This document shows, in pieces, positions 4,747 through 32,359 of a DNA stretch of 49,792 nt. Made by a program: the position numbers and the translations under genes. Source of the stretch: Cyanophyceae cyanobacterium (GTDB lineage Bacteria; Cyanobacteriota; Cyanobacteriia; Cyanobacteriales; JBHJGN01); assembly GCA_050331735.1 (NCBI GenBank), contig JBHJGN010000003.1, positions 1 to 49,792 on the forward strand, in the 5' to 3' direction. Under the pieces are notes generated by a model. That model ran no database searches and was not told the origin of the DNA. It worked only from the letters and a program-made list of their open reading frames with translations. The stretch's first letter is position 1. The number at the start of each line of letters is the position of its first letter.

Positions 4747-4907
4747 CGCCGCAGGCGGAAGCCGCTGCCGCGGCGGGAAAAGGACAAAGGGGAAGGGGAA
4801 ACGGGTATGTCCCTCTGGAATGGGTCAAGAACACAGGGCTAAGGAATACATTGAATCACTCCCCCATTCCCCCTTCCCCGTCCCAAAGGGACATGCGCCG
4901 ACGGCGC
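4746..4907 (+). repeat. Modular hairpin/heptamer element, copy A
   Basis: Bounded by perfect IR TAGCGCCG/CGGCGCTA that includes the leuD and guaA stop codons; core AAGAACACA+24 nt at 4827-4859. Confidence 0.9.
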
Positions 4908-6523
4908 TACTCCCATTCAATCGTGCCAGGAGGCTTGGAGGTAATGTCGTAGACGACTCGATTGACTCCTTGGACTTCATTAACGATGCGGTTAGAAATG
5001 GTTTCTAGTAAGTCGTAGGGAACGCGGGACCAGTCTGCCGTCATGCCGTCTTCACTCGAGATCAGGCGCAGCACGACGGGGTAAGCGTAGGTGCGCTGAT
5101 CTCCCATGACTCCCACACTGCGAATCGGCAGCAGCACAGCAAAAGCTTGCCAAAAATCGTGGTACATCCCCTGCTGCTGAATTTCATCGCGCACTACATA
5201 GTCAGCATCTCGAAGAATATTAAGCCTGTCTGCTGTGACTTCCCCAATAATCCGAATCGCTAATCCTGGTCCAGGGAAAGGATGACGACGAACAATTTCT
5301 TCCGGTAAGCCGATGGAGCGTCCTACTTTACGCACTTCGTCTTTAAAGAGCTTGCGCAGGGGTTCTACTAGCTTGAAGCGGAGGTTCTTAGGCAGTCCGC
5401 CGACGTTGTGGTGACTTTTAATCTTTACCGCTACCCGTTCTCCCGTCTGCGGATCGACGTTAGTATCGGCAGATTCAATGACATCAGGATACAGAGTGCC
5501 TTGAGCAAGGTAGTCAAACGGACCAAGCCGCTGAGATTCTTCTTCAAAAACCTGAATAAATTCGTGACCGATACGGCGGCGCTTTTCTTCTGGATCGGTA
5601 ACGTCGCAAATCCGAGTCAGAAAGCGCTCTCGGGCGTTAACGTACTCCACCGGAATATGAAATTCTTCCTTGAAGAGTTTCACTAGGCGCTCTGGCTCTC
5701 CTTTACGCATAAAGCCCTGGTCGATGAACATGCAGGTGAGCTGGTCGCCGATTGCTTCGTGCAGTAAGAACGCCAGAGTGGAAGAATCAACACCGCCAGA
5801 CAGGGCCAGCAGCACCCGCTTATGACCCACTTTCCCCCGAATTTCTCGGATGGCTTCCTCAACAAATGCCTCCGTTGTCCAGGTGGGTTCACATTCGCAG
5901 ATATGATAAACAAAGTTGCGAATCAGCGCAATACCGCCTTCAGAATGAACCACTTCTGGATGAAACTGAACGCCGTAGAGTTTCTTGTCCTGGTTAGCGA
6001 TCGCCGCGCAGGGCGTATTTTCCGTATGAGCGAGAACAGAAAAACCGGCTGGCAAAGCAGTACAGGAATCACCGTGACTCATCCACATGGTTGAGCCGCT
6101 ACCTACGTTCGTCAGCAGATCCGTCGGATCGTCAATGCAGAGAGCTGCTTTGCCGTATTCCCCCCGTTCAGCTCGCTCTACTTCTCCGCCCAACTGCTGC
6201 ACCATCAACTGCATACCGTAGCAAACCCCCAAAATCGGAACGCCGAGGTGCCAAATTTCCGGATCGCATTGAGGAGCTCTGCGATCGTAGACAGAGTTGG
6301 GCCCTCCCGAAAGAATAATGCCCTTCAGACCCAGTTTTTTAATTTGCTCTGCGCTAGTCCGGTAGGAGAGGACTTCTGAGTACACTTGAGTCTCGCGGAT
6401 GCGACGAGCGATTAACTCGGAATATTGCGAGCCAAAGTCTAAAATCGCAATCATCTGACGATTTACGCTCCCTAGCGGCTCTGTTGGTCTCTCGCTTTGA
6501 ATGCTTGCTGTTTGAGTAGTCAC
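4907..6523 (-). CDS. guaA: GMP synthase (glutamine-hydrolyzing)
   Basis: [38 protein letters not shown] and KPPGTIEWE motifs. Confidence 0.99.
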
Positions 6524-6651
6524 AATAGATTCTGGTGGCGTAGATGAACTAAAGTATCAATAAGAACGAAACCGAAACTGCTGCCTTCCTCGATTTAAAA
6601 TCAAAGAGGCAATCTCAGATTTTTAATTAAACTTAATATATTTAAATTATC

Positions 6652-7770
6652 CTAGCACAGCTTAGACAACATTGTAGTGCCGTTAGCGCTAGAAACGATT
6701 ACGGTACGATTGCGATCGAACAGGACAGAACCGATGCTGACATCTCGTTCGGCGTGCTTGCGGATGTAGTCTTGGGTGCGCCGATCGATCGTGGCGGCGA
6801 TCGCACCGTAAACCTGTGCTACCCAAGTCCTGTTTGTTTCCCGATCTAGCTGGCGCAGCCGCTGTAAGGCAGCTTCTGTTGTCGCGCTCGCAAATACCTG
6901 CTTCAGTACGGGGGGGGGTAAACCAAGGTTCGCACAGTGAGCCGTGAGCACTTCTAATCTGCCATCGGCTAAATGATGATGGGTATGAAAAATTCCTCCT
7001 GCTAGCTTGATGAGTTTTCCGTGATAGCCAAACAGCAAAATTTCCGCCACGTCTAGACCCCCCGCAGCGACGAGTAGGGGGCCCAGCCAGTTAGCCGTTT
7101 TGACGAGCTGCTGAGGCTTAATCCCGAAGCGCTGTGCCAGCTCAAGACCGTTTTCGCCAACGCAAAATACCAAGCAATTGTGCTGTGCTTTCGCTGCCAG
7201 CTCCTCCCGGTAAGCCGCCAACTGCCCCGGCGCACTGAGCGGTTGGGCGATGCCGCTCGTTCCCAGTAAAGATAGCCCTTCGACAACTCCAAATGCAGCA
7301 TTAGAAGTTCTCTGAGCTAGCCTGCGCCCTTCCGGTAAGATAATTGTGACAGCCATCTTTTCTCCTGGCTGGAGGTGTCGCTGCAAATTTTCTCTAAGAA
7401 GCCGCTGCGCATAGCGATAAATAGCGGCTCCACCATCGGCAATCAGTCGTCCCACACCCTCTCCACCTTTGAGGGTGATGGCAGGAGGGGTATCGAGCTC
7501 AGGCAGCGCAGAAAAAAGCTCAACTAACGCCCAAACCGGCGTGTGACGAGTGAGATCGAGATTGTCCCCCGGATCGCTGCGGGTAATAGCGAGGGCTACG
7601 TTAGGACTGATGGGGGCAACTTGCTCGATGGGAATAGCAACGATTTGAGGCGGTTCGATCAGATCGACGCTCACAGTCGGATGAGATTCCTGACGCAAGC
7701 ACTGAAGAGCCGCCATAGCGGCGGCGCAGGCAAACACGGGGAGAGTATAGCCAGAGCGAGGCTGATTCAT
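6652..7770 (-). CDS. cbiD: Cobalt-precorrin-5B C1-methyltransferase
   Basis: RSGYTLP, DPGDNLDLT, GGEGVG, GLSLLGTSGI and GYHGKLIKLAGGIFHTH motifs. Confidence 0.95.
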   Translation of the reverse strand: MNQPRSGYTLPVFACAAAMAALQCLRQESHPTVSVDLIEPPQIVAIPIEQVAPISPNVALAITRSDPGDNLDLTRHTPVWALVELFSALPELDTPPAITLKGGEGVGRLIADGGAAIYRYAQRLLRENLQRHLQPGEKMAVTIILPEGRRLAQRTSNAAFGVVEGLSLLGTSGIAQPLSAPGQLAAYREELAAKAQHNCLVFCVGENGLELAQRFGIKPQQLVKTANWLGPLLVAAGGLDVAEILLFGYHGKLIKLAGGIFHTHHHLADGRLEVLTAHCANLGLPPPVLKQVFASATTEAALQRLRQLDRETNRTWVAQVYGAIAATIDRRTQDYIRKHAERDVSIGSVLFDRNRTVIVSSANGTTMLSKLC

Positions 7771-7788
7771 TCGTTCAGTCCAGACAAA

Positions 7789-8247
7789 CTATTCATATCG
7801 TCTGCCGTCTTTGTGGGTAAACGCCCATCCTTGGGACTCTTTTTGAGCCACTAAATCGGCATCTGGGTAATAAACTTGATCTCCGAGGGAGCGATCGCCA
7901 ATTTCTAGATAAACAGCGATCGCATCTGAGCGATTGATCAAATGATGACCGTTGGCCTCTGCTGCTGGAAACCCAGCAGCATCTCCAGGTTTTAACAATT
8001 GTTCCCCATCGTCGCTAACCAGAGTGACTTCTCCCTCTAGCAGGTAAATCAACTCATCTTGCTGGGAGTGCCAGTGTCTTACAGAAGAGGCGCTTCCAGG
8101 CGCTAATTTGACCAGATTAACGCCAAAGTTTTTAAGCTGAGCCGCTTCTCCTAATCGCTTTCTGGTGCGTCCAGCCACAATCGCTTTGAAAGGTTCTGGA
8201 TAATTGGTTCCGGTGGTTTCTGGAACGTTTTTTGGGTTGATCAGCAT
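7789..8247 (-). CDS. Cupin domain protein
   Basis: FGVN...RHWH...DE...LEGE...GHHLIN cupin motifs. Confidence 0.9.
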   Translation of the reverse strand: MLINPKNVPETTGTNYPEPFKAIVAGRTRKRLGEAAQLKNFGVNLVKLAPGSASSVRHWHSQQDELIYLLEGEVTLVSDDGEQLLKPGDAAGFPAAEANGHHLINRSDAIAVYLEIGDRSLGDQVYYPDADLVAQKESQGWAFTHKDGRRYE

Positions 8248-8660
8248 GGGAGCTACAGTGTTAATTTTAATAGAGGAAAAAAACTATTTTTCAGACAGTA
8301 CAAGAGTTTGCCTTCAGCTTAACTGGACTAACTTGCTTTCATAAAATTAAGGAAAAGAAAACTGCCCTCAGCAATGCCACTATTTTTGTCCTTTAGAGTA
8401 CTGGCTAATTCCATTCCCTCTGTTCCAACAGCAATAAATTTTTACTAGCTTAGTTTCTGCAAACTTAATGAATATCAAGCTGTCAAAAAACTGCTAGTTT
8501 TGTTTTGCTTTTAATTGTTAGCTGTTTCCCACAGTTTGCTATTCTTCTATGGCAGGCAAATCAAGTTTATCTCTTTAAATCAAACCAGATCGAAGCATGA
8601 ATTAGTACGGTTGCTTGTATTGCCTCCTATTATCAGCGTTCGTCAAACCTTTAGCAATTA

Positions 8661-8703
8661 GTAGCATCAAATACAGTTTTCACAATGGTGCTGAGATTAG
8701 ATT
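8661..8703 (+). promoter_or_regulatory. NtcA-activated (class II) promoter
   Basis: GTA-GCATCAAA-TAC at 8661-8674, 23 nt spacer, TAGATT (TAN3T) at 8698-8703, 43 nt before the ATG. Confidence 0.7.
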
Positions 8704-8746
8704 TTTGGTGTCAGCGATCGCGATTGGTTTTTAGTAACAAATCAAC

Positions 8747-9805
8747 ATGCAGGCTTCATTTAAAAGAATTGTCATTGGAGCAACATTTTTTGTCCTCACC
8801 ATCATTATTGCAGTTGTTGGTTATATTTTCTTCGGTTGGACGTTACTAGAAGCTATCTACATGGTTGTTATCACCATTTTTGGGGTGGGGTATGGAGAAG
8901 TTCAACCGTTGGAAACGGCAGCAGAAAAAATTTTTACAATTTTGGTGATTATTGCTGGCACATCGTCAGCAGTCTATATCGTGGGAGGATTTGTACAAAT
9001 GGTGGCAGAAGGAGAAATTAACCGGGTTCTAGACACCCATCGTAAAGCCAAAGAAATCCAAAAACTCGACAACCATACCATTATCTGTGGTTTTGGGCGC
9101 ATGGGGCAGATCCTAGCGCAACAGCTAAAAGATGCCAGACAACAGTTTGTGATTATCGATTGTGACAGCGAGTTGATGCGTGGCGCTGAACAAATGGGTT
9201 ATTTAACCCAAGTAGGCAATGCCACCAATGAAATCATTCTCCAGGCGGCGGGAATAGACAAAGCAAGAGTCTTAGCGACAGTGCTCCCAGACGATGCCGA
9301 CAACGTATTTATTACTCTCACTGCTCGCGGCTTGAATCCTCAGCTATCAATTCTAGCCCGCGGCGAATTGCCAAGTACTGAAAACAAATTGAAATTAGCG
9401 GGAGCAGATCGAGTCGTGTTGCCAGCGACTATCAGTGCTATGCGGATGGCAACTCTAATTACGCGTCCTACTGCCATCGACTTCCTCGAAAGTGGTGACG
9501 AACGCAACCTTCTGGAGGAAGTTTTAGGACAAATTAATGTTCGACTCGATGAATTAGTAATTTCTCCAGGCTCACCCCTTGTTGGCAGAACAATGAATCG
9601 ATTGGAAGTACAAGGTCGAGGATCATTCATCACCATTGCTCTCTGTCGCCAAGACGGAACTTTGGTTAAAAATCCCCAACCTGGAGTTGTTTTAGAAGCG
9701 GGAGATAGGGTAATTGTCCTCGGACATCAAGGGGATCTTCCTCGAATTGCCAAAGCCAACGAATTAAAGAGTAAAATGCGCTATCGAGGCTCTCGAATGA
9801 GTTGA
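8747..9805 (+). CDS. Two-TM K+-channel-like protein with RCK (TrkA-N/TrkA-C) domains and non-canonical filter
   Basis: TM-pore-TM with TIFGVGYGE; ICGFGRMG Rossmann motif; C-terminal TrkA-C-like region. Confidence 0.9.
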   Translation: MQASFKRIVIGATFFVLTIIIAVVGYIFFGWTLLEAIYMVVITIFGVGYGEVQPLETAAEKIFTILVIIAGTSSAVYIVGGFVQMVAEGEINRVLDTHRKAKEIQKLDNHTIICGFGRMGQILAQQLKDARQQFVIIDCDSELMRGAEQMGYLTQVGNATNEIILQAAGIDKARVLATVLPDDADNVFITLTARGLNPQLSILARGELPSTENKLKLAGADRVVLPATISAMRMATLITRPTAIDFLESGDERNLLEEVLGQINVRLDELVISPGSPLVGRTMNRLEVQGRGSFITIALCRQDGTLVKNPQPGVVLEAGDRVIVLGHQGDLPRIAKANELKSKMRYRGSRMS

Positions 9806-9999
9806 TTTCGCGATCAAATCCCTATCGTTTCGGTTGAGCTCTTAATTGGGTTGCTCACGTTAGGTTTAGCTGCATTGAGCAAGAGGATGAAAATATCTAA
9901 GTAAAATGGGGAGGCCAGTTTTCTTGGGAGATTAGGGTTGGTGTCACGGTAAGCCCTCTGTGCGTTCAGGGATGCTAGCACATTTATGAGAACAAAAAA

Positions 10000-10013
10000 G
10001 TAACGTGAACGAC
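10000..10013 (+). promoter_or_regulatory. Imperfect NtcA site upstream of amt
   Basis: A-tract followed by GTA-ACGTGAAC-GAC (one mismatch to GTA-N8-TAC); no clean -10 box at the expected spacing. Confidence 0.4.
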
Positions 10014-10105
10014 AGTAAAAGGAATAAAAAAGGTAGAAACTGAGTCGGAAACCGGTTTGTGATTGTGTACAAACTAGAAATATAGGTGTCAGCATAGAAA
10101 AACAA

Positions 10106-11572
10106 ATGAATTTCGCATTAAAAAGGAAAAAAGTACCATCACAACATCCACGCTCTAGGCAGCGATCGCCTGTGGCGTTCCTCCAACCCATCCAAGTCGT
10201 ATTTGGTTCTGCTCCTTACTGGCTGGCCTGTATCCCTCTGTCCGCCCTAATTGTCATTATTTGGAACACGGCGGCTAAGGCTCAGGGATTTGAGGCTCCA
10301 GCTAACGTAGACGAATTGAGAGTTGTCTTAGACTCAATTTTCCTGCTGTTCTGCTCCGTTTTGGTAATCTTCATGAATGCCGGATTCGGAATGCTAGAAG
10401 CGGGTTTTTGTCGCCAGAAAAATGCCGTTAATATTCTGGCTAAAAATCTGATCGTTTTCGGAATTGCCACCCTCGCCTACTGGGCGGTGGGCTATGCTCT
10501 AATGTACGGTGAAGGCAGCCCGTTTATTGGCACCCAGGGTTTTTTCTTTAGCGGCGATCCGGCCCCCTATGGTAACGATCCTTACCCAGCAGCGGTTCCC
10601 GAAGCAATCTCGTTCCTGTTCCAGGTCGCATTTGCGGCGACGGCGGCCACCATCGTTTCCGGTGCAGTAGCAGAACGAATTCATTTTGGAGCCTTTTTGG
10701 TTTTCAGCACTCTGCTAGTGGCTATTTCCTATCCCATTACCGGTCACTGGGTTTGGGATGGTGGTTGGTTAAGCGAAATGGGCTTCTCCGACTTTGCTGG
10801 CTCTACTGTCGTTCATTCTGTCGGTGGCTGGGCGGCTTTAGTCGGTGCCGCTATCTTGGGACCGAGACTCGGTAAATACCAAGATGGCAGAACGAATGCC
10901 ATTCCCGGGCACAACATGGGGTTTGCGACTCTCGGTTGCTTGATTCTCTGGATCGGCTGGTTTGGATTCAATCCAGGGTCGGAACTAGCCGCAACAGCAA
11001 ATGTGCCCTATATCGCCGTAACGACTAACCTAGCGGCAGCAGCCGGGGGAACAACGGCCACCTTTACCTCTTGGTTAAAGGATGGTAAGCCTGACCTATC
11101 AATGATTATCAACGGTATTTTAGCCGGATTAGTAGGAATTACGGCTGGATGTGCCGACGTTAGCTATTTATCTGCCGTAATTATCGGGGCGATCGCCGGC
11201 ATTATCGTCGTTTTCTCCGTCGCTTTCTTCGACTCGATCAAAATCGACGATCCCGTTGGGGCCACTTCAGTCCACTTAGTTTGTGGTATTTGGGGAACGC
11301 TAGCCGTTGGTATCTTTGGCACGGGCAACATTATTACTCAACTGATTGGAATCTTATCTATTGGCGCTTTCACCGTAATCTTTAGCGCCATCGTTTGGGG
11401 AATCCTGAAGGTCACATTAGGCATGCGCGTTGATTCCGAAGATGAATTCATCGGTTTAGACATCAGCGAACACGGCATGGAAGCCTATAATGGATTTGTC
11501 AGAGAAGCAGAAGCATTGGCTTACAGTGACTCCGGTGCGGCGATCGATGCAGAAATCGGTCAAACAAGGTAG
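10106..11572 (+). CDS. amt: Ammonium transporter (Amt family, cyanobacterial Amt1-like)
   Basis: [38 protein letters not shown] and [11 protein letters not shown] motifs. Confidence 0.97.
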
Positions 11573-11817
11573 CGCCGCCGGCGCAATGTCGCGAAGCGAC
11601 GGGGAAAGGGAAATCAGTCGCTCCGCGACGAGTAATCATACCAATTAGAAAAAGTAATAGGAGACTTGATAAGTTGGGGAAAAGGGGAAAGGGAAGCACA
11701 GCAGCTCTTTGCCCTTGAACCTCCAATTTCGGTAAATGGTATAAGACAGCGGTCTGAGATTAAATACTATTTAATTCCTCCCCTTCCCCTATTCCCTTTT
11801 CCCCGCGCTCACGGCGC
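11572..11817 (+). repeat. Modular element, copy B (core interrupted by nested MITE)
   Basis: Starts at the G of the amt TAG with GCGCC-gcc-GGCGC; two GTCGC/GCGAC hairpins; ends GCGCT-cac-GGCGC 3 nt from the guaB3 stop. Confidence 0.85.
11636..11744. mobile_element. Nested MITE-like insert (about 109 bp)
   Basis: Imperfect TIRs TCATACCAATT / AAATGGTATAA; removing it roughly restores a core resembling that of copy D. Confidence 0.6.
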
Positions 11818-13042: not shown

Positions 13043-13142
13043 CGCTCAGCGGAAAAGGCAGTGCCTGCGGCACGGGAAAAGGGTAAGGGGGAAAGGGGAA
13101 CCATAGAGAATATTCCTCCCCTTTCCCCGTCCCGAAGAGACT
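13043..13142. repeat. Modular element, copy C (short core)
   Basis: GTGCC-tgc-GGCAC hairpin, GGGGAAA-type run, CCCCTTTCCCC run, GTCCC-gaa-GAGAC hairpin. Confidence 0.8.
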
Positions 13143-21643: not shown

Positions 21644-22567
21644 TTGAGATTTTTGAAGCCGAAACACCATCGTCTGACCCGTTTCCCAGCACCAGTTAGG
21701 CTGGGAATTTTTGTGGTGACGCTCCTGTTGCTGTGGCTGCCTGGGGCCATCCCCGCCTATTTTCTGCTGCGTCACCCCAATACCGTGACAATTGTGACTA
21801 TGGCGTGGATGTTCATTGTTTTTCTTCTGTTGTTGCGGTTTTGGAGTCAGCAGTACGGACAGCTCTTTTTCAAGCGCTATGGTTTGGAATGGACTCGACA
21901 GAATGGGATCGACCTCCTGAAAGGACTGATGATTGGCTTAGGCTCTGTCCTGAGCCTATTTATTCTGAAGTGGAGTGCTGGCTGGATCGAGTTGGGTACT
22001 CCTTCAGCCCTAGGCAGAACTGTAGCCGAAGGACTTTTGAGTGCTGTGGGAATTGGTCTAGCCGAAGAACTGGTGTTTCGGGGGTGGTTACTTGATGAGC
22101 TACAGCAAGACTACTCTTCAAAAACGGCGCTGTGGGCCAATGCGACCATCTTTGCTCTGCTGCATTTTCTCAAGCCTTTAGAAGAGATTGTGCGGACTTG
22201 GCTACAGTTCCCCGGTCTCGTGCTGCTGGGCTTGACGCTTGTCTGGGCTAGGCGAGGACATCAGCAGAGGTTAGGAATTTGTATTGGGCTTCATGCTGGT
22301 TTGGTTTGGGGCTACTACCTTGTTGACGTTGGTCAGCTAATTGAGTCTTCAAGCTTTCCAGTGATAACGGGAATTGACGGCAATCCGCTGGCTGGATTGC
22401 TAGGGCTGACATTGTTGAGCATCTTGGCTGGGTGGAGCGCCAGAGGCGCGGGAAAAAATCCCTGTGGGACGAGGAAAGGGGAAATAGTCGCTACGCGACG
22501 GAGCAAGGGGAAGGGAAAAATGTTCTTAAGAGACGGGGAAAGAACACAGAGGTCAGAGAAAAGCTAA
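21644..22567 (+). CDS. CPBP (CAAX/Abi) intramembrane protease; last 43 aa are repeat-derived
   Basis: EELVFRG, FALLH and IGLHAG motifs; 22436-22567 lies inside repeat copy D. Confidence 0.88.
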   Translation: MRFLKPKHHRLTRFPAPVRLGIFVVTLLLLWLPGAIPAYFLLRHPNTVTIVTMAWMFIVFLLLLRFWSQQYGQLFFKRYGLEWTRQNGIDLLKGLMIGLGSVLSLFILKWSAGWIELGTPSALGRTVAEGLLSAVGIGLAEELVFRGWLLDELQQDYSSKTALWANATIFALLHFLKPLEEIVRTWLQFPGLVLLGLTLVWARRGHQQRLGICIGLHAGLVWGYYLVDVGQLIESSSFPVITGIDGNPLAGLLGLTLLSILAGWSARGAGKNPCGTRKGEIVATRRSKGKGKMFLRDGERTQRSEKS

Positions 22568-22618
22568 TTTATCCCCCTTTCCCCCTTCCCCTTTGCCCTT
22601 TTCCCGTTGCGGAGCAAC
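22437..22618 (+). repeat. Modular element, copy D
   Basis: GCGCC-aga-GGCGC, GTCGC-tac-GCGAC, core at 22540-22572, ends GTTGC-gga-GCAAC. Confidence 0.9.
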
Positions 22619-22702: not shown

Positions 22703-23815
22703 ATGGTTGGTTATCTTGTTTTCCTGACAATTTCTACAGGGCTGTTTGCAATTTTTGCGTTGGGGCTGAATTTGCAGTGGGGATTTACCGGACTGATTAA
22801 TTTTGGACACGTGGCTTTTCTGACCCTGGGAGCTTACGCCACTGTGCTGTTAAGCGCTCAGGGAGTGCCTTTGGTGGTGGCAGTGCTGGTGGGAGCGATG
22901 CTTGCTGCCCTGCTTGGACTGTTGATTGGAACTTCTACTCTGCGACTGCGGGAAGACTATCTAGCCATTGTGACCATTGGAGTTTCTGAACTGGTGCGTC
23001 TGGTAGCGCTCAACGAGGAATGGCTGACGCAAGGCGCTTTCGGCGTTCAGCGCTTTCCTTTACCTCTAAGTGGCTTTCAGCCGAATTTGATTGGCAAGCT
23101 AATCATGATTAGCATTCTCACCACCCTTGCCGTTTTTGCCGGGTGGCGACTGGCGCGAGGGCTGAAGAAACAACGACATCAGCAAAAAAGCCGGAAAAGT
23201 CCGCAATTGAAGTCTCTTTTGGGGCTGGTTATCTGGGGAATTATCGGTGCTGCCCTGATTTTGCTAGTCTACATCAATGGCGTGATGGCTCTGTGGAACT
23301 ATAACTACAAAGCCGGACTGATGCTGCTGGTGCTAATCGTGTTGACGGTTACCTATGGAGCCCTAGAGTTCTTGGTGCGATCGCCCTGGGGTAGAGTGCT
23401 TAAAGCGATTCGCGAGGATGAAGAAATCCCCAGAGCGCTGGGCAAAAATGTTTTTTGGTATAAGATGCAGGCATTCATGCTCGGTGGTGCGATCGCCGGT
23501 CTTGCTGGCGCTTTCTTTGCTTGGCAGCTCACCACCGTTTACCCGACTAATTTCGATCCCCTCGTCACCTTCAACGCCTGGACAATTGTGGTGCTAGGAG
23601 GAGCAGGCAGCAATACCGGCACCATCTTAGGAGCCGTCATTTTTTGGGCTTACGATGCGCTCACGCGCTTTATTCTGCCGGAGCTTGGGTTAGTAGACAA
23701 CGCCCAAGCTGGCGCATTTAGGATTATGGTCATCGGCTTAATTTTGATGGGTCTGATGGTGTGGCGACCGCAAGGTATTTTAGGAAATAAGGAAGAACTG
23801 TCGCTGGGTAAGTGA
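22703..23815 (+). CDS. natC: Neutral/branched-chain amino acid ABC permease (LivM-like)
   Basis: GLNLQWGFTGLINFGH, RLREDYLAIVT, SPWGRVLKAIREDE and RPQGILG motifs. Confidence 0.88.
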   Translation: MVGYLVFLTISTGLFAIFALGLNLQWGFTGLINFGHVAFLTLGAYATVLLSAQGVPLVVAVLVGAMLAALLGLLIGTSTLRLREDYLAIVTIGVSELVRLVALNEEWLTQGAFGVQRFPLPLSGFQPNLIGKLIMISILTTLAVFAGWRLARGLKKQRHQQKSRKSPQLKSLLGLVIWGIIGAALILLVYINGVMALWNYNYKAGLMLLVLIVLTVTYGALEFLVRSPWGRVLKAIREDEEIPRALGKNVFWYKMQAFMLGGAIAGLAGAFFAWQLTTVYPTNFDPLVTFNAWTIVVLGGAGSNTGTILGAVIFWAYDALTRFILPELGLVDNAQAGAFRIMVIGLILMGLMVWRPQGILGNKEELSLGK

Positions 23816-24041
23816 GTCGCATTCGCGACGGGAAAAGGAGAAGCGCCACCGGCGCAGGGAAAAGGGGAAGGGGGAAAGTTGCTCCGCAACGGGAAAAGGG
23901 GAAGGGGGAAAGGGGAAAGGAAGAATAAATCAGCTTAGTTTTTAGTCTTGTGTTCTTTTCCCGTCCCGCTAGGGACAAATTTCCCTTTCCCCCTTCCCCG
24001 TCCCGCAGGGACAGTTTTCCCCTTCCCCGTTCCGGAGGAAC
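23816..24041 (-). repeat. Modular element, copy E
   Basis: Begins right after the natC TGA; six hairpins; reverse-oriented core at 23925-23957. Confidence 0.9.
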
Positions 24042-24069
24042 TTCATTCTATTAACGATGGAAGAAACTA

Positions 24070-24837
24070 ATGACAAATGATACTCCCCTGCTGACGGCTA
24101 GCGGTTTATCTAAGAGCTTTGGCGGTGTTCGAGCCGTTGACGATGCTCAAATCAGTGTAGAGAAGGGCAGCATTACCGGATTGATTGGCCCCAATGGGGC
24201 GGGGAAAACGACCCTGTTTAATCTGCTCTCAAATTTTATTCGTCCCGATAAGGGACAGGTGATCTTCGATGGGGAACCGATTCATCACCTAGAGTCCTAT
24301 CAAATTGCTCAGCAGGGGTTTGTGCGGACGTTCCAGGTGGCGCGAGTGCTTTCCCGGCTGTCGGTGCTGGAAAATATGCTGCTGGCAACTCCTAAACAAA
24401 CCGGGGAAAATCTGTTTCAGGTGTGGGTGAAGCGGCAACAGATTCGCAGCGAAGAACGCCAAAGCCGAGAACAGGCTCTGGCGATTTTAGAATCTGTTGG
24501 GCTAGCAGCGAAGGCACAAGATTACGCCGGAGCGCTATCTGGAGGACAGCGCAAGCTGTTGGAAATTGCGCGAGCCATGATGACGTATCCAAAACTGATT
24601 TTGCTCGACGAGCCAGCAGCGGGAGTCAATCCCACGCTCATCGGTCAAATTTGCGAACACATTACAGACTGGAATCGCGAAGGCATTTCTTTTTTGATCA
24701 TTGAGCACAACATGGACGTCATCATGACCCTATGCGATCGCGTCTGGGTTTTAGCCGAAGGACGCAACTTAGCTGACGGCACCCCGCGAGAAATTCAGAA
24801 AAACGCTCAGGTACTAGAAGCGTATCTAGGGGAGTAG
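24070..24837 (+). CDS. natA: Neutral amino acid ABC ATP-binding protein (LivG-like)
   Basis: GPNGAGKT, RTFQ, LSGGQ, LLDEPAAG, IEHNM and EAYLG motifs. Confidence 0.88.
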   Translation: MTNDTPLLTASGLSKSFGGVRAVDDAQISVEKGSITGLIGPNGAGKTTLFNLLSNFIRPDKGQVIFDGEPIHHLESYQIAQQGFVRTFQVARVLSRLSVLENMLLATPKQTGENLFQVWVKRQQIRSEERQSREQALAILESVGLAAKAQDYAGALSGGQRKLLEIARAMMTYPKLILLDEPAAGVNPTLIGQICEHITDWNREGISFLIIEHNMDVIMTLCDRVWVLAEGRNLADGTPREIQKNAQVLEAYLGE

Positions 24838-25034
24838 CGCCGTAGGGAAAGCGCCGTTGGCGCGGGGAAAGGGGAAGGGGGAAAGGGAGATGAATTAGCT
24901 TTTCTCTGACCCCTGTGTTCTTTCCCCGTCCCGGAGGGACAATTTCCCCCTTCCCCGTCGCGGAGGGACAGTTTTCCCTTTCCCCTTTCCCCGTCCCGGA
25001 GGGACAATTTCCCCCTTCCCCGTCGCGGAGCGAC
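24837..25034 (-). repeat. Modular element, copy F
   Basis: Starts at the G of the natA TAG; reverse core at 24890-24922; exact 45 bp duplication at 24921-24965 and 24986-25030. Confidence 0.9.
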
Positions 25035-25832: not shown

Positions 25833-28800
25833 ATGTTTCTGAAGTCTAGCCCACTAGAGTTAAAGAAAGCCCCGTCGTCTGCTGGCATTTCTTTGACCGC
25901 GATTCTGAGTCTTGCTTCGGTCGCGATTAGTATCTCCTCCGTCGCCTTAGTCAGTAGTTTACAGATTTGGCTAGATTATCAAACTCAAAAGCGTTTAGTC
26001 CGCCAGCAACAGTTAACAATTGCCGTCGAAGTTGCCTCAGAAGTGGAGCATACCTTCGAGCAGGCTATTAACGTTGTGAAGGCGAAAGCGCTAACGGAAC
26101 AGCCCTTAACAGAATCAGCAAGCAGACGACAATTAATGCTTAAACATCTGCTTCATCTAGAAGCTAACTTTGAAGAGGTAGCGCTTCTCGATAGCCGGGG
26201 GCAAGAGCTCAATAAAGTTTCTCGTTCGAGAGAACAAGAGTCAGTAAATTTGCACAACTACCAAAATTCTGAACTTTATCGTCGGATTAGTCGCCAGCAG
26301 GTTTACATTGGTTCAGTGCGCACTGAACCCAATCAAGAAAAACCGCTGTTAACGGTTGCTGTGCCAATTGTTGATGATTTCCGAGTGTATGGAGCGATCA
26401 TCGCTCAACTCGATTTGTCATTTTTACAGAAGCTTGTCGATTCTCGCCAACTTGGACAAACGGGCGCAACTTACCTCGTCGATCGTCGCAGCAAAGTCGT
26501 TTTTTCTCAAAGCAATGAACCCATTCCCGCCGCGTCTGAACTTTTACTTCCCTCTGATATGCGCACAAACACGGGTCGACCCGCGTTTAGGATCGGAGAA
26601 GGAATTAATGCTCCGCTTGCGCTGACAACCTATGCTCCTCTAAAAATATCTGAAAAAATTTTTGACCTGAGCCTAATCATTGAAGTTCCGGTTAAAGAAG
26701 CCTATGCGCCAATTTTTCGCAAGCTGGCATTGTTAGTTGGCGGGTCGGTGTTGGTGATGGTGGGGGCTGTTCTGGCTGGAGTCTATCTAGCTCGTCGCTT
26801 GATGCAACCGCTACAGCAGTTAACCACTACAGCCGCTCATATTGCAGATGGCGAACTTGGATGGCAGGCTTCAGCAGGAGGAACAGCGGAAGTTTCTAGA
26901 TTAGCGGAGGCGTTTAACCGCATGACCGCTCGGCTGCGAAACTCAATTCAGTCGTTAGAGGAGCAAGTAGCAGAACGAACGCAGAAGCTAACAGACGCGA
27001 ATCGCCACCTTCAGCAGGAGATTGGCGATCGCCAGCAAATAGAAATAGACCTGCGTCACTCTCAGGCTAAGCTAGCCAGAATTTTCAGCTTTAGTCCCGG
27101 TCCGATCGGCATTGCCACCCTAGATGGAAGATACGTTGAGGTCAACGAAAGCTTTTCGACTCTGCTGGGCTATACTCGCTCCGAGATTATCGGGCGCACG
27201 TCTGTTGAACTGGAAATTTGGGAAAGCGACAAAGAACGTCAGCAATTCGTGCGACAGCTACAGGAGAAAAAGAAGATTACCAACCGAGAGGTCAACGTTC
27301 GTACCAAGTTAGGACAGCGGAAAACGGTACTGTTTTCTATGGAGTTGATTGAGTTGGACAATCAGCTCTGTACCTTGGGCGTTGCTGTAGATATTACCAA
27401 GCGCAAGCGGCTTGAAGAAGACCTCAAGCAGAGCGAAGAACGCTGGCAGCTAGCCCTGCAAGGAACCAACGACGGGATTTGGGACTGGAATATTGCTCGC
27501 AACCAAATCTTCTACTCAATCCAGTGGAAGAATATGCTGGGCTATGTAGAGCATGAGTTTGCTAATTGCAAAAGCGAATGGGAAAGCCGACTGCACCCAG
27601 AAGATCGAGAACGAGTCTTGCAGGCAACCCAAGCCCATCTCCGCAGGGAAACACTATTTTATGCAGAAGAATATCGTCTGCGCTGCAAAGACGGAAACTA
27701 TAAGTGGATTCTCGATCGCGGACAAGCGCTGTGGGATGAGGCTGGCAATCCGACCCGAATGGTCGGCTCCCACGCTGATATTACCGAGCGCAAGCAGGCT
27801 GAAGCAACAATTCACCAGCAAGAGCAGTTTCTGCGCAGCGTTTATGAGGGGGTGGAGGCGGGTATTTTTATTGTGGACGTATTGGGAGAGCGGCAATTTC
27901 GCTATGCTGGCTCCAATGCCACCCACGAGCGCATGTCCGGCATTGATAGAGCTGCTTTACTCGATGCAACGCCGGAAACCCTGTTGGAGCCTGAAACTGC
28001 CGCCGCCGTGATGAAGCAGTACCAGGCGTGTATAGATTCCAGGGAACGGCTAACCTACGAGGAACGGTTGCTCATTCATAATCGGGTGACTTGGTGGCTC
28101 ACGACCCTTACTCCTTTGCAGGATAGCCAAGGGCGAATTTTCCGACTGCTCGGCACTACTCTAGATTTGTCAGAGCGCAAAGCAGCAGAAGAAGCCCTAG
28201 CCAGACAGTTCCACAGACAGCAGTTGCTCTCTAGTATTACTAACCAGATTCGCCAGAGTCTCGACATTCAGGCGATTTATCAAACCACCGTGGCTGAAAT
28301 TGGTCGTGCTTTTAACGTCAGCCGCTGTAGTCTACACGTTCTCGTTGAGCCTTCTAACCCCAATATTCTGACGGCTGCGGAGTACCTTGTTTCTGGCTAT
28401 GCTTCTATGCAGCAGGCGGAAGTCCCTTTCAATGCTTACGCTCAGGCTCTATTGGAGCGAGACTGGGCGATCGCTACCTACGATATCTATCGTGAATTTT
28501 GGCTAAAACCTGTGCTTGATATCTGTGAACAGTTTCAAATCAAGTCGTTACTGACAATCCGGACATCCTATCGCGGAAAACCGAATGGTATCATTTCCCT
28601 ACACCAGTGCGATCGCCAGCGCCACTGGAGTACGGAGGACATTGAACTGATTGAATCGGTTGCCGCTCAGGTTGGCATTGCCATCTCTCAGGCGACCCTC
28701 CTCGAACAAGAACACGCTCAGCGACAGGAACTCGCTCAGAAAAATACTGACTTAGAAGCGGCAAGACAGGTGGCAGAGCAGGCTAACCGCGTTAAAAGCG

Positions 28801-30149
28801 AGTTTTTGGCCAACATGAGCCACGAATTGCGTACGCCCCTCAACGCCATTCTTGGCTTTACTCAGATTATGCAGCGAGATGCTACTTTGAGTTCAGAACA
28901 GGGGACCAACCTAGATATTATCAGCAACAGCGGTCATCATCTGCTGGGACTGATCAACGACATTTTGGATATGTCTAAAATTGAGGCAGGCCGAATCATC
29001 CTAAACAAAAGTAGCTTCGATCTCTACTATCTCCTCGATGCTCTCAAAGAAATGATGCAGATTAAAGCCTCGGCCAAAGGCTTACAGCTTCTGGTCCAGC
29101 GATCGCCTGACGTTCCTCAGTACATTCAAACCGATGAAAGCAAGCTACGCCAGGTGTTAGTGAATCTACTCAGTAATGCGGTTAAGTTTACTGAATCCGG
29201 CTGCATAACGGTACAGGTGAGTCATAACCAATGTTCTGCGACCGATATGTGCTTTAGCGTTGCCGATACCGGAGCGGGAATTGAGCCAGAGGCATTGGAA
29301 ACCATTTTCGAGCCGTTTATTCAAAGCAAAACAGGACGGCAAGCTCAGTCGGGAACGGGCCTCGGGCTGCCGATTAGCCGTAAATTTGTGCAGTTGATGG
29401 GAGGAGATTTATCCGTTAGCAGCACTCCTGGTCAAGGCTCAGTGTTTAGCTTCACCATTCAAATCGCTCCAGCGCAGTCCGTCGCCCACGCTCAGCGCCC
29501 GCGCCGAGTCGTTGGCATTGCCCCCCATCAGCCTTACCGCATCCTTGTCGTAGAAGATACCTGGGAAAGCCGGAAGCTGCTGGTCAAGCTGCTCGAACCG
29601 CTGGGTTTTGCCGTTAAAGAAGCGACCAACGGCGAAGAAGCGATCGCTATCTGGGAAAGCTGGCAACCCCATCTAGTCTGGATGGATATGCGGATGCCCG
29701 TGATGGACGGCTATGAAGCAACGCGGCGGATTAAAGCTCATCTTCGCGGGCAGGCCACGGCGATTATCGCGCTGACGGCTAGCGCCCTAGAGCAGGAGAG
29801 AGCCGTTGTGCTATTAGCAGGCTGCGATGATTTTGTTCGCAAGCCTTTCCGGGAAGAGGAACTGTTTGCCAAGATGTCTGAGCATTTGGGCGTACAGTAT
29901 CTCTACGAAGAGCCATCTCCAGTTCCTACAGCGGAGCCGTCGTCCGGTGATTGGCAGGCCATCGAGCAAATGCCGACCGAATGGCGATCGCAACTGCAAC
30001 AGGCGGCGACAACGGCTGACAGCGAATGGCTCTTGCAGTTGATTCAGCAAATTCCGCCCGAGCATCAGCTTTTAGCGAGTGCTTTAACTGATTTAGTTCA
30101 CAATTTTCGCTTCGACCGAGTTATGGAGTTAGCCGATCTGGTAAGCTAA
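25833..30149 (+). CDS. Hybrid sensor histidine kinase (TM-Cache-TM-HAMP-3xPAS-GAF-HisKA-HATPase-REC)
   Basis: LAEAFNRM (HAMP), PAS/PAC repeats, FLANMSHELRTPLN, NAVKFT, GTGLGL and WMDMRMP motifs. Confidence 0.95.
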   Translation: MFLKSSPLELKKAPSSAGISLTAILSLASVAISISSVALVSSLQIWLDYQTQKRLVRQQQLTIAVEVASEVEHTFEQAINVVKAKALTEQPLTESASRRQLMLKHLLHLEANFEEVALLDSRGQELNKVSRSREQESVNLHNYQNSELYRRISRQQVYIGSVRTEPNQEKPLLTVAVPIVDDFRVYGAIIAQLDLSFLQKLVDSRQLGQTGATYLVDRRSKVVFSQSNEPIPAASELLLPSDMRTNTGRPAFRIGEGINAPLALTTYAPLKISEKIFDLSLIIEVPVKEAYAPIFRKLALLVGGSVLVMVGAVLAGVYLARRLMQPLQQLTTTAAHIADGELGWQASAGGTAEVSRLAEAFNRMTARLRNSIQSLEEQVAERTQKLTDANRHLQQEIGDRQQIEIDLRHSQAKLARIFSFSPGPIGIATLDGRYVEVNESFSTLLGYTRSEIIGRTSVELEIWESDKERQQFVRQLQEKKKITNREVNVRTKLGQRKTVLFSMELIELDNQLCTLGVAVDITKRKRLEEDLKQSEERWQLALQGTNDGIWDWNIARNQIFYSIQWKNMLGYVEHEFANCKSEWESRLHPEDRERVLQATQAHLRRETLFYAEEYRLRCKDGNYKWILDRGQALWDEAGNPTRMVGSHADITERKQAEATIHQQEQFLRSVYEGVEAGIFIVDVLGERQFRYAGSNATHERMSGIDRAALLDATPETLLEPETAAAVMKQYQACIDSRERLTYEERLLIHNRVTWWLTTLTPLQDSQGRIFRLLGTTLDLSERKAAEEALARQFHRQQLLSSITNQIRQSLDIQAIYQTTVAEIGRAFNVSRCSLHVLVEPSNPNILTAAEYLVSGYASMQQAEVPFNAYAQALLERDWAIATYDIYREFWLKPVLDICEQFQIKSLLTIRTSYRGKPNGIISLHQCDRQRHWSTEDIELIESVAAQVGIAISQATLLEQEHAQRQELAQKNTDLEAARQVAEQANRVKSEFLANMSHELRTPLNAILGFTQIMQRDATLSSEQGTNLDIISNSGHHLLGLINDILDMSKIEAGRIILNKSSFDLYYLLDALKEMMQIKASAKGLQLLVQRSPDVPQYIQTDESKLRQVLVNLLSNAVKFTESGCITVQVSHNQCSATDMCFSVADTGAGIEPEALETIFEPFIQSKTGRQAQSGTGLGLPISRKFVQLMGGDLSVSSTPGQGSVFSFTIQIAPAQSVAHAQRPRRVVGIAPHQPYRILVVEDTWESRKLLVKLLEPLGFAVKEATNGEEAIAIWESWQPHLVWMDMRMPVMDGYEATRRIKAHLRGQATAIIALTASALEQERAVVLLAGCDDFVRKPFREEELFAKMSEHLGVQYLYEEPSPVPTAEPSSGDWQAIEQMPTEWRSQLQQAATTADSEWLLQLIQQIPPEHQLLASALTDLVHNFRFDRVMELADLVS

Positions 30150-30385
30150 TAAATTATTGATCGTCTTACCTAAAATAGTTACCTGTAAACATCTATTTTA
30201 AGTAAAATCTAGGCATTCTGCGTTAAAAACAATCAAAATTAGCCTTGCTGTAAATCCTCCAGAAATGCTTGAGTAAGCATGGATAAACCAGAAAAAAGGA
30301 TTTTTAGCTATTTGTAAAGAACCAAGTATTGTCGGGAGATATCGTGCTTAGTCATCTATACGGTCAATTACTGCCTCTCTAATTT

Positions 30386-32203
30386 ATGAATAGCCAGCAG
30401 TCCACTTCCAGTGGAGGGAACATTTTAGTCGTAGACGATACACCAGCCAACCTCCGTTTTCTATCAACAACTCTTCCTGAGCAAGGATACAAGGTGCGAA
30501 GCGTTCTCAGCGGACAGATGGCGTTAACCGTTGCCAAATCAGCGCCTCCTGACCTGATTTTGCTCGATATCAAAATGCCAGAAATGGACGGATACGAAGT
30601 TTGCCAGCGCCTCAAAGCAGACCCGCAAACTCGCGATATTCCGGTGATCTTCTTAAGTGCTTTGAGTGATGTTGTAGATAAAGTGAGAGCTTTTGCCGTC
30701 GGAGGAGTCGATTTTATTTCTAAACCCTTTGAGATCGAAGAAGTTTTCATTCGCGTCGAGAATCAACTCAAGCTGCGAGCCGCGCAGCAGCAAGTAGAAA
30801 CCCTCAACGCAGAACTAGAGCAGCGAGTCATTCAGCGCACAGCTCAGCTAGAGCGAGAGAGCGCTGAACGACAAAAAGCGCAAGAACAGCTTCTTTACCT
30901 GGCGCTCCACGACAGCCTGACCGACTTACCGAATCGCGCTTGGCTCTCGAATCGTCTCGATCAGGTTCTAAACCGCGTTCAGCAACAGCCCGACTATCAA
31001 TTTACCGCGTTGTTAATCGACTGCGATAACTTCAAGGCGGTCAACAATTCTTTAGGCTATATAGCTGGAGATAATCTCCTCGCTGCGGTTGCTCGCCGTC
31101 TAGAAACCTGTTTGCAGCCGATTGCTACCATTGCCCGGATTGGGAGCGATGAGTTTGCCGTTCTGCTGGAGACAACAGAGTTGCAAGATGCTATCCAGCT
31201 TGCCGAGCGCCTTCAGTCAGAAATGAGCTTACCCGTTCAGCTTGGCGATTATGAAGTCTTTGTCAGTCTCCGGATCGGTATTGTGGTTGGCTCGCAGGCT
31301 TACGAACGTTCCGAACATCTGCTGCGAGATGCAGAGGTAGCGTTGTCCCAGGCCAGAACCGAGGAAAATTCTTTTTATCAAGTTTTTGATCCTAGTATGT
31401 ACCTGCGAGCCTCTAACTTCCTGCGGTTACAGACAGACCTCAATTTGGCAATTCAGCGGCAAGAGTTTCAGGTTTACTATCAGCCAATTGTGTCGCTAAC
31501 CAGTGGCAAAATTGTCGGGGTAGAAGCCCTAGTGCGTTGGCTAAATCCAAGCCGAGGCCTAGTTGCCCCCGCCGAGTTTATTCCGGTAGCCGAGGAAACG
31601 GGATTAATTATTGCTATCGACCGCTGGGTACTCCGCCATGCCTGTCTGCAGCTTAAAGAGTGGCAAACTCGCTCTCTCGTCTCTAGCTCGTTTAAGGTGA
31701 ACGTGAATTTTGCGGCGAAACATTTTTCTCAAGTAAACTTTGTAGAAATTATGGACCGCACTCTGCAAGAAACTGGGGTAGAGGGGCGAAATTTAAAAAT
31801 TGAAATTACTGAAAGTACTCTGCTCAATAGAAAGACGCTCGTCGTCAATATTCTCGAACAGCTCGAAGCTCTTCGCATTGAAGTCAGCATCGATGACTTT
31901 GGCACCGGGTATTCTTGCTTGGGGTATTTAGATGGTTTGGCCGTCAGAACTTTAAAAATCGACCGCTGTTTCATCAATCGCATTTCCGAAGCCAACGAAA
32001 GAGCCAATTTAGAAATTCTCCGGGCGATCGCCACCCTCGCCCATAATCTTGGCAAATCAGTCACAGCCGAAGGCGTAGAAACCCAGCAGCAGCTCAACCA
32101 TCTCAAAGCTTTAAACTGTGAGTTTGCCCAAGGATATCTGTTTTCTCCCCCCCTCGATGCTCAAGCAGTAGAGGAGTTGTTAGCAACAGAGCCACAGTAT
32201 TGA
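30386..32203 (+). CDS. REC-GGDEF(degenerate)-EAL response regulator, likely c-di-GMP phosphodiesterase
   Basis: VVDD...LLDIKMP; IGSDEF in place of GGDEF; intact EALVRW, EITES and DDFGTGYS. Confidence 0.93.
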   Translation: MNSQQSTSSGGNILVVDDTPANLRFLSTTLPEQGYKVRSVLSGQMALTVAKSAPPDLILLDIKMPEMDGYEVCQRLKADPQTRDIPVIFLSALSDVVDKVRAFAVGGVDFISKPFEIEEVFIRVENQLKLRAAQQQVETLNAELEQRVIQRTAQLERESAERQKAQEQLLYLALHDSLTDLPNRAWLSNRLDQVLNRVQQQPDYQFTALLIDCDNFKAVNNSLGYIAGDNLLAAVARRLETCLQPIATIARIGSDEFAVLLETTELQDAIQLAERLQSEMSLPVQLGDYEVFVSLRIGIVVGSQAYERSEHLLRDAEVALSQARTEENSFYQVFDPSMYLRASNFLRLQTDLNLAIQRQEFQVYYQPIVSLTSGKIVGVEALVRWLNPSRGLVAPAEFIPVAEETGLIIAIDRWVLRHACLQLKEWQTRSLVSSSFKVNVNFAAKHFSQVNFVEIMDRTLQETGVEGRNLKIEITESTLLNRKTLVVNILEQLEALRIEVSIDDFGTGYSCLGYLDGLAVRTLKIDRCFINRISEANERANLEILRAIATLAHNLGKSVTAEGVETQQQLNHLKALNCEFAQGYLFSPPLDAQAVEELLATEPQY

Positions 32204-32205
32204 CA

Positions 32206-32359
32206 GGGAAATAGTCGCGTTCGCGACGGGAAAAGGGAAATTTGTCCCTGACGCGACGGGGAAATAGTCGCGTTCGCGACGGGAAAAGAATACAAGACTA
32301 AGAAATAAGCTGATTTATTCTCCCTTTCCCCCTTCCCCTTTTCCCCGCGCCGACGGCGC
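32206..32359 (+). repeat. Modular element, copy G
   Basis: 30 bp direct repeat at 32206-32235 and 32259-32288; core at 32286-32318; ends GCGCC-gac-GGCGC. Confidence 0.9.

Follow-up and report, generated by a model that had tools for sequence, protein, structure and literature searches.

Within a window of 49,792 nucleotides from a cyanobacterial genome (Cyanophyceae cyanobacterium, assembly GCA_050331735.1, contig JBHJGN010000003.1, positions 1 to 49,792; contig 3 of a 5.57-Mb genome in 99 contigs), perfectly paired hairpins of 13 to 14 nt recur with different stem sequences. Our results suggest that these micro-hairpins are probably the palindromic modules of a lineage-specific, orphan family of non-coding intergenic repeats. 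They are not free-standing, as about 80 to 90% of the main stem types lie within G-rich heptamer tracts, and hairpins and tracts together form the arms of a composite element of which ∼128 copies are found in the genome.

A first-pass annotation of the window had listed hairpins with a perfect 5-bp stem and a loop of 3 to 4 nt. All 22 of them are present at the positions and with the stems given there, and the window holds one further perfect copy (GTCCC GGA GGGAC at position 24993) as well as six one-mismatch copies at positions 24957 (a GTCGC/GGGAC hybrid), 32243, 11805, 13128, 37067, and 37128. In total, 35 perfect G-N3-C hairpins with loops of 3 to 4 nt were found, compared to 6.5 ± 2.6 (maximum 13) in 200 dinucleotide-preserving shuffles of the window. 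Nineteen of the 35 directly abut GGG or CCC, compared to 0.15 ± 0.37 (maximum 2) in the shuffled sequences. These controls and the genome-wide pairing test described below rule out that the hairpins arose by chance or as an artefact. One perfect hairpin followed by GGGG (GCCCC AAT GGGGC, 24188 to 24200) sits within coding sequence, in the Walker A region of an ABC ATPase gene, and resembles the family only by chance. A known structured RNA family was rejected as the identity of the hairpins, since a search of both strands of the whole window against Rfam 15 at the gathering score returned no match. The genome has a G+C content of ∼49.5% and carries 4852 copies of the cyanobacterial HIP1 octamer.

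Genome-wide, the family comprises ∼640 to 660 hairpin copies, and the individual module consists of the hairpin, whose polar loop usually reads T-N-C on the G-rich strand, zero to two spacer bases on its 5′ side, and a G-rich heptamer-like tract. Read on the G-rich strand, the consensus order is heptamer tract, zero to two spacer bases, and hairpin, followed directly by GGGgAAAGGGgAA. The spacer depends on the stem, with CT or TT before GTCCC, TA before GTTCC and GTCGC, and AA before GTTGC, and the hairpin always falls after an A run and before a G run of the tract. The loop of GTCCC hairpins on the G-rich strand is TCC in 54 cases versus GGA in 3, which identifies it as polar; loop positions 1 and 3 are conserved along with the stems, while position 2 varies freely. 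The most frequent tract units are GGGGAAA (206), GGGGAA (184), GGGGGAAA (167), and GGGAAAA (98). Tracts are short, with a median of 26 nt, and 298 of them contain at least four G runs. For the main stem types, most copies have a G or C tract pair no more than 45 nt away (GTCCC 166 of 192, GTCGC 116 of 145, GCGCC 143 of 182, GTTGC 78 of 94, and GTTCC 74 of 89), whereas this applies to only 210 of 12152 other hairpins. The GGG or CCC that the first-pass annotation had placed on the core side of the hairpins is indeed adjacent to them, but is more precisely the start of the G-rich heptamer tract, next to a hairpin with a polar loop.

To assess the pairing of the stems across the genome, all sites matching G-N3-C, a 3-nt loop, G-N3-C, and GGG were collected, and 489 of 1102 are perfectly paired; with a 4-nt loop, 153 of 903 sites are paired. 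Perfect 5-bp hairpins followed by GGG number 961, with nine stems making up 635 of them, namely GTCCC (176), GTCGC (121), GCGCC (105), GTTGC (77), GTTCC (75), GCAGC (36), ATCGC (18), GCCGC (16), and GTGCC (11). The first five of these amplified types account for 554 of the 635 copies (∼87%). The first G and fifth C of the stem, described earlier as invariant, are so inside the window but not genome-wide, where 18 copies of ATCGC/GCGAT are present and GTCCT and other variants exist.

Covariation was tested with 582 sites picked only by their context (G-N3-C, 3 nt, G-N3-C, GGGRA), for which pairing was not required. Of these, 411 are perfectly paired, compared to 70.7 expected if the right arms were dealt at random among the same sites, and the table of left by right arms is almost purely diagonal. 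For 19 copies in the window, 98.9% of the cells are paired versus 75.7% in shuffles (none of 500 reached the observed value) and 20 to 48% with a slid partner; this set was largely picked for pairing, and the 582 context-only sites provide the fair test. The four stems of the form GT-Y-S-C cover every combination of the two variable positions, and each occurs with its complement. Sites with at most one change per arm from a major stem comprise 385 perfect ones, 111 with a change in one arm, and 70 with one change in each arm. Compensatory changes were found in 36 of these 70 doubly changed sites, where about 1 in 15 would be expected, and they define 11 distinct stems, 7 of them singletons. 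The claim that structure is kept across differing stem sequences therefore stands. Most copies descend from a few (∼9) amplified stem lineages, yet compensatory change has recurred, because 11 further paired stem variants exist, 7 of them as singletons. A descent of all variants from a few copied lineages, which had been named as an outcome that would speak against conserved structure if compensatory changes were missing, thus applies to the 554 copies with five stems but not to the 11 further paired variants. Single mismatches in the stems are mostly transitions, with 36 of the G·T type and 42 of the A·C type on the G-rich strand. As a G·T mismatch on one strand is an A·C mismatch on the other, the tolerance of wobble pairs that a functional RNA should display is seen on neither strand.

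The modules are not arranged at random. In a composite element, a G-rich arm is followed by an asymmetric core of ∼45 nt and a C-rich mirror arm, and each arm contains one to four hairpin modules. Among clusters with hairpins in both orientations, 119 have the order G-rich arm to C-rich arm, one the reverse order, and one is mixed. This order makes the element a long imperfect palindrome that could fold back on itself as a stem bearing small hairpins at its sides. One core, with the conserved block AAAGAACACAG, is common to the interiors of the 119 clusters; the core profile was built from 31 regex-anchored copies, so that the conserved block is partly circular. It matches the genome 128 times (69 on the plus and 59 on the minus strand), with 6 matches in the window. 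The composites are non-coding and 84 to 256 bp in size. For the region 23810 to 24050, the predicted fold of the RNA or single strand has an energy of −121.3 kcal/mol (z −6.9), in which the G arm pairs with its C-rich counterpart and the small hairpins branch off to the side, while the predicted fold of the neighboring element is less distinct (z −2.4).

The asymmetry of the core allows the two arms to be distinguished, and they carry different hairpin classes. On the side of the core marked by GAACAC, GTCCC (80), GTCGC (51), and GTTCC (33) make up 164 of 190 hairpins. On the opposite side (n = 124), GCGCC (44), GTTGC (38), GCAGC (12), GTGCC (6), and GCCGC (5) make up 105, the classes of the GAACAC side being represented by 16 GTCGC, 3 GTCCC, and no GTTCC hairpins. 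The transitions between neighboring hairpins split into the same two stem groups as the arms. Because the sorting by arm and the neighbor transitions agree, the stem variants are position-specific modules of a larger element and not interchangeable cassettes.

Other interiors are also found between hairpin-plus-tract arms in this genome, at C14:25582-25835, C22:125719-125940, and C4:45094-45257. They include a longer core of ∼130 to 145 nt common to two loci and another interior with heptamers of the CAGTGAN type, which shows that the arms are not bound to one core. At C19:44115-44309, a GTTCC…GGAAC hairpin has ∼29 nt extra in its loop and may contain a nested insertion.

To elucidate how the copies differ from each other, 311 hairpin clusters were aligned all against all, and indels were kept if their flanks were well matched. 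Of the resulting 365 unique indels, 271 have a length of 7 nt, and in 15 the gap, of 13 to 24 nt and most often of 15 nt, contains an entire perfect hairpin. In addition, 43 distinct filled/empty pairs were found, in which a hairpin with a spacer of 0 to 3 nt is present or absent between intact heptamers, and in one such pair the unique cores, located on the same side, are almost identical. Units of hairpin plus tract are also tandemly duplicated, as in 24928 to 25034. Because the indels are exactly the hairpin plus 0 to 3 nt, these alignments indicate that the hairpin is a discrete module that is gained or lost.

Such a pattern raises the possibility, which we consider rather doubtful, that the cassette of 13 to 17 nt is an autonomous SDR-like mobile unit that inserts at heptamer boundaries and of which only hairpin-forming copies propagate. 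The 43 filled/empty pairs and the 15 hairpin-bearing indels, which were obtained under strict flank rules, are consistent with this, as are the phase-specific placement after an A run and before a G run, the adjacency of differing hairpin types in one arm, and the excess of perfect stems with its 11 rarer paired variants. However, random insertion would not give hairpin classes sorted by arm, and hairpins are almost never found outside the tracts. Palindrome deletion or unequal exchange between arms would yield the same alignments. Hence, the first-pass suggestion that the cassettes are mobile units in their own right holds insofar as they are discrete modules that are gained or lost in hairpin-sized indels, but they are bound to tracts and sorted by arm and are therefore no free agents. 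In a bolder version, which strikes us as unlikely, the cassette would be the smallest self-propagating bacterial DNA unit yet seen, copied without a transposase into the A|G boundary of G-quadruplex-prone tracts and building the arms from inside. Snap-back or template-switch synthesis at replication forks stalled in the tracts would be a candidate route for this, and the stems would in that case co-vary as a side effect of replication repair instead of being shaped by selection.

For the orphan repeat family that we favor, we propose the following course of events. The family would have spread as whole composites via a function acting in trans, no transposase being linked to the family, while local change would be ongoing in two ways, by slippage of 7-nt units and by individual hairpin cassettes being gained or lost where heptamers meet. 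The complementarity of the stems probably persists in part since only a handful of perfectly paired hairpin lineages was amplified. Imperfect short palindromes would either be lost or be restored to perfect pairing, for which intrastrand template switching in replication (quasi-palindrome correction) would be the most economical route; it could transfer a change between the two arms in a single step. Quasi-palindrome correction by template switching is established in Escherichia coli genetics. With no need for selection, it would account for three results, namely the surplus of perfect stems, that of compensatory double changes, and the strand symmetry of the mismatches. Templated palindrome repair, one of two causes offered for the paired stems in the first-pass annotation, is a viable candidate explanation for the excess of perfect stems. 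The elements would be tolerated mainly in the 3′ flanks of genes, and any effect would most likely be exerted by orientation-independent stem-loops of RNA or DNA, as for REP/BIME sequences.

The other cause that had been offered is recognition by an enzyme of the HUH type. A Y1 enzyme, either a REP-associated tyrosine transposase (RAYT) or an IS200/IS605 TnpA, would recognize the hairpins and move inverted doublets as REPINs via single-stranded DNA. The architecture is indeed reminiscent of REPINs, with inverted palindromic units around a spacer and alternative folds as a long hairpin or “clover”, as far as the parts of PMC3116915 drawn on here describe them. In addition, structure is conserved more than sequence, and the genome contains eight Y1_Tnp matches. 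However, no match in the whole genome exceeds the 80-bit cut-off of the RAYT model NF047646, the best score being 24.7 bits, and the five Y1 proteins scanned, which come from five of the eight loci, all score as IS200/IS605 family transposases (NF033573). At six of the eight Y1 loci, no family hairpin abutting a G or C tract is present within ±1.5 kb. The remaining two loci form a pair of insertion sequences (IS) with 83% identity, and the hairpins there lie outside the shared 1.66 kb. Sub-terminal hairpins matching the left and right ends of a resident IS200/IS605 copy, as in palindrome-associated elements derived from such IS, were not seen next to the Y1 genes, the exact ends of the IS being unmapped. 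The presence of different stems in the two arms, with about nine or more stem types overall, is hard to fit to one enzyme; the stems have only 5 bp, and the symmetry of G·T and A·C mismatches gives no sign of one active strand. A link to RAYT or HUH enzymes was thus looked for and not found, and we consider this mode of mobilization highly improbable; it is unsupported by the resident genes, although a partner may have been lost or left unassembled. The IS200/IS605-type pair itself (C37:74716-75069 and C15:47718-48071) carries one in-frame stop in each tnpA-like frame, TAG in one copy and TGA in the second.

An autonomous parent element was likewise rejected, since the flanks of the elements share nothing relevant: in the 1.5-kb flanks of the 128 elements, the only shared coding sequence is one pair of paralogous genes. 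The composites resemble bacterial MITEs (miniature transposable elements with inverted repeats), such as Nezha of cyanobacteria, Correia/NEMIS, and ERIC, in being non-coding and intergenic, with inverted arms and a strong stem-loop fold, and their size of 84 to 256 bp, the ∼128 copies, and the occurrence in either orientation are also MITE-like. In contrast to MITEs, no target-site duplication or sharp termini were seen in the flanks inspected, no parent insertion sequence sharing the arms was found, and the arms are expandable low-complexity arrays and not fixed terminal inverted repeats.

Several observations weigh against the proposed family of composite repeats and its history. As to a possible mobility of the composites, neither target-site duplications nor sharp ends were found, because the arms fade into degenerate tracts; flanks were listed for 50 of the 77 bounded elements and positions were counted for the full set of 77, and neither revealed a recurrent direct repeat or a sharp end. 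A recognized core is present in only ∼128 of the 311 hairpin clusters, and some arms flank other cores. The alignments of filled and empty copies lie in low-complexity tracts, so that the “empty” partner need not be ancestral and insertion cannot be told from deletion. The copies are old, with a median best-match identity of 82% and top pairs at ∼91 to 92% over 134 to 150 nt. No close relative in which empty orthologous sites could be compared was found in the collections searched, the best identities being 76% at the DNA level among genomes and 76% at the protein level among 80 metagenome loci. The assembly of 99 contigs is apparently metagenomic, and the Logan contigs of the one public run containing this stretch break at the repeats; the fragmentation of the assembly may share this cause, and the internal order of long arms could hold assembly errors. 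Finally, both the correction by template switching and a role as RNA or DNA structure are steps that we infer.

The placement of the elements relative to genes was analyzed using a crude map of open reading frames (ORFs) that covers 80.6% of the genome, according to which 528 of 636 family hairpins lie outside ORFs. Hairpin clusters occupy 164 co-directional, 68 convergent, and 27 divergent gaps, with a background of 1956, 599, and 696, respectively. The median distance to the adjacent stop codon is 30 nt, with 34% of the distances within 10 nt, and the median distance to a start codon is 132 nt. No bias in orientation relative to genes was observed, neither for single arms (60 versus 56) nor for cores (44 versus 37). 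No T run following the hairpins was seen in the flanking sequence, although no dedicated terminator scan was made, and intrinsic terminators were rejected as their identity on this ground.

In the genome collection searched, no other genome belongs to the family or genus of the source genome, and the nearest genomes are from different families. The hairpin-plus-tract pattern matched 69 times in the source genome and not at all in 300 other genomes of the order. A looser pattern gave 216 matches in the source genome, 191 of them paired; among 200 other genomes of the phylum, 194 had none, five had one each, and one had 11 matches to an unrelated direct-repeat motif. No element was present at any of 91 orthologous transporter (liv) loci, of which 11 are from genomes and 80 from metagenomes. 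Only one public DNA run, a metagenome, contains the stretch, and no RNA run is listed.

The position next to genes could also mean that the elements are host cis-signals under selection, that is, RNA stabilizers or terminators at 3′ ends, DNA structures of G-quadruplex and hairpin, or sites for nucleoid or topology proteins. In agreement with this, they are found near stop codons and are under-represented in divergent gaps, as are the G-rich heptamer repeats of Nostoc and Xanthomonas in the sections of PMC4692102 used here. The 298 tracts with at least four G runs, the very stable predicted fold, and the conservation of the stems and of loop positions 1 and 3 with a free position 2 would also fit such a role. 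On the other hand, the elements favor neither an orientation nor a strand with respect to genes, no T run follows the hairpins, and the structure of the copies is highly variable. Since the elements were not found in the sampled 300 genomes of the order, 200 genomes of the phylum, or 91 liv loci, a general host function is unlikely, and we regard selected host signals as an improbable explanation overall.

Compared to known systems, the family combines features of REP/REPIN, SDR, and STRR-like (G-rich heptamer) repeats. As in REP, BIME, and REPIN sequences, short extragenic palindromes occur in hundreds of copies and are clustered in alternating or inverted order with set linkers, and as in REPINs, inverted doublets around a spacer can fold into a long hairpin, the order from G-rich to C-rich arm being found here in 119 of 121 clusters with two orientations. 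Compensatory changes in predicted stems and a placement in the 3′ flanks of genes are further shared features, all of them as given in the portions of PMC3116915 and PMC3733652 relied upon. The palindromes differ in size, since they have 13 to 14 nt with 5-bp stems, whereas REPs have 20 to 40 bp, and in REP super-families one end of this stem-loop carries an unpaired tetranucleotide, GTAG or CGTC (PMC3733652, in part). A GTAG or CGTC tag is absent from the flank consensus, which consists of A/T spacers and GGG; where CGTC was seen, it was invariably formed by the final C of a C tract together with three paired bases of the stem, and this in GTC stems only. In contrast to REPs, the hairpins of this family are linked by G-rich heptamer tracts and belong to different classes in the two arms, and no RAYT is present.

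SDR1 to SDR8 of the Nostocaceae, reportedly described by Elhai and colleagues in 2008, are said to be very small hairpin repeats of 21 to 27 nt with compensatory stem changes, often embedded in tandem heptamers or mini-transposons in Nostoc, and to have been proposed as the smallest mobile elements. The family resembles this description in its compensatory stems and in hairpins embedded in heptamer tracts, but it has cassettes of 13 to 17 nt, other stems, and another heptamer unit, a comparison made by description and not by sequence. SDR5 inserts into HIP1, according to the parts of PMC4390886 and PMC5861425 at hand, and SDR-like repeats had not been found outside the Nostocaceae according to the corresponding part of PMC5861425.

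The tracts, and not the hairpins, resemble the STRR and the Nostoc heptamer repeats. The GGGGA(C/T)T heptamer repeats of Nostoc are located near stop codons and are under-represented between divergent genes (Rehm et al., 2015; PMC4692102, in part). The parts of that study considered here describe 7-nt G-rich units that are dispersed, intergenic, and prone to changes in copy number by 7 nt, which corresponds to 271 of the 365 indels of the present family, and that often have at least four G runs, as required for a G-quadruplex. In comparison with the same source, the present family differs by a GGGGAAA-like unit, short tracts punctuated by hairpins, and a C-rich mirror tract around a core.

Further sequences came to light in the searches of other genomes. 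A scan of 596 Gb with a degenerate 19-mer has an expectation of ∼140 chance matches, so that no distribution of the family can be derived from it. Among the matches listed, a 13-mer hairpin with a GTCCC stem and a TCC loop recurs in REP-like repeats of metagenome-assembled genomes labelled Acidobacteria, Planctomycetes, Verrucomicrobia, and Sumerlaeota (loci L024, L030, L032, L034, L045, L051, L060, L074, L075, L083, L084, L091, and others). It often stands beside a second hairpin ending in GGCTAT-like sequence and sometimes beside its own inverted copy, with no G-heptamer tracts, and its recurrence could reflect convergence or a widely favored hairpin. A genome of the same order (G418, L206:1380-1530 and L210:1380-1530) contains at least 11 copies of a different MITE-like repeat, in which direct repeats of the GGAGACGC type surround a GGGGAAGGGGAGA tract with a mirror arm ∼100 nt away; this is a distinct family.

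In the window, the copies are surrounded by housekeeping genes, namely leuD, guaA, an ammonium transporter gene, guaB3, ABC-transporter genes, surE, and genes for a histidine kinase and a c-di-GMP phosphodiesterase. The first composite (4761 to 4907, core on the plus strand at 4827 to 4865) lies between the convergent leuD and guaA genes and has GCCGC at 4761 in its G arm and GTCCC at 4880 and GCGCC at 4895 in its C arm. A G-oriented arm on the plus strand (11572 to 11629; GCGCC at 11572, GTCGC at 11588 and 11617) begins at the stop codon of the ammonium transporter gene. It is followed by a newly found degenerate copy (11676 to 11817), with a G tract at 11676 to 11697, a C tract at 11780 to 11804, and the one-mismatch hairpin GCGCT CAC GGCGC at 11805. 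A short copy at 13061 to 13140 comprises GTGCC at 13061, a G tract at 13074 to 13098, a C tract, and the degenerate hairpin GTCCC GAA GAGAC at 13128.

Three composites are found within less than 3 kb. The one at 22437 to 22618 (core on the plus strand at 22536 to 22581) is located between two ABC-transporter permease genes, with GCGCC at 22437 and GTCGC at 22487 in the G arm and GTTGC at 22606 in the C arm. The next, at 23816 to 24041 (core on the minus strand at 23916 to 23958), begins 1 nt past a permease stop codon; its G arm, which points away from the GAACAC end, contains GTCGC at 23816, GCGCC at 23843, and GTTGC at 23878, and its C arm, on the GAACAC side, contains GTCCC at 23963 and 24000 and GTTCC at 24029. 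The third (24851 to 25034, core on the minus strand at 24882 to 24926) has GCGCC at 24851 in its G arm and GTCCC at 24928, the GTCGC/GGGAC hybrid at 24957, GTCCC at 24993, and GTCGC at 25022 in its C arm, with an internal tandem duplication of 65 nt.

The composite at 32214 to 32359 (core on the plus strand at 32285 to 32327) begins 11 nt past the stop codon of the c-di-GMP phosphodiesterase gene, and its G arm contains GTCGC at 32214, a GTCCC/GCGAC hybrid at 32243, and GTCGC at 32267, and its C arm GCGCC at 32347. Beyond the range covered by the first-pass annotation, a degenerate composite is present at 37030 to 37140, with a core on the plus strand (37075 to 37117, E = 3.7e-4) and the one-mismatch hairpins GTCCC TCC AGGAC at 37067 and GCGTC AAT GGCGC at 37128.

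A mechanically called ORF of 307 amino acids (21644 to 22567), which has no NCBIfam match at E ≤ 1e-10, runs into the repeat at ∼22437 to 22567. This frame is probably extended spuriously by the G-rich tracts, and annotation pipelines may likewise overcall such frames. The elements thus call for caution in annotation, as they abut stop codons and create spurious long ORFs.

The new points of this analysis are the hairpin classes specific to each arm, the two modes of indels, the strand-symmetric spectrum of mismatches, and the absence of a RAYT. The arm-specific classes provide a built-in marker for the polarity of the element, and three layers can be separated in the family, namely heptamer slippage, gain or loss of hairpin cassettes, and copies of whole elements. 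If the description of the SDRs given above holds, SDR-like repeats with hairpins in heptamers would extend beyond the Nostocaceae. To our knowledge, no mechanism has been put forward for the heptamer repeats of cyanobacteria for decades, and it is still unsettled, beyond the case of RAYTs and REPINs, by what means palindromic repeats of such small size are propagated in bacteria and keep their stems paired. With ∼650 hairpins and ∼128 composites in a genome with no RAYT, the family represents a copy-rich and clean case for this question.

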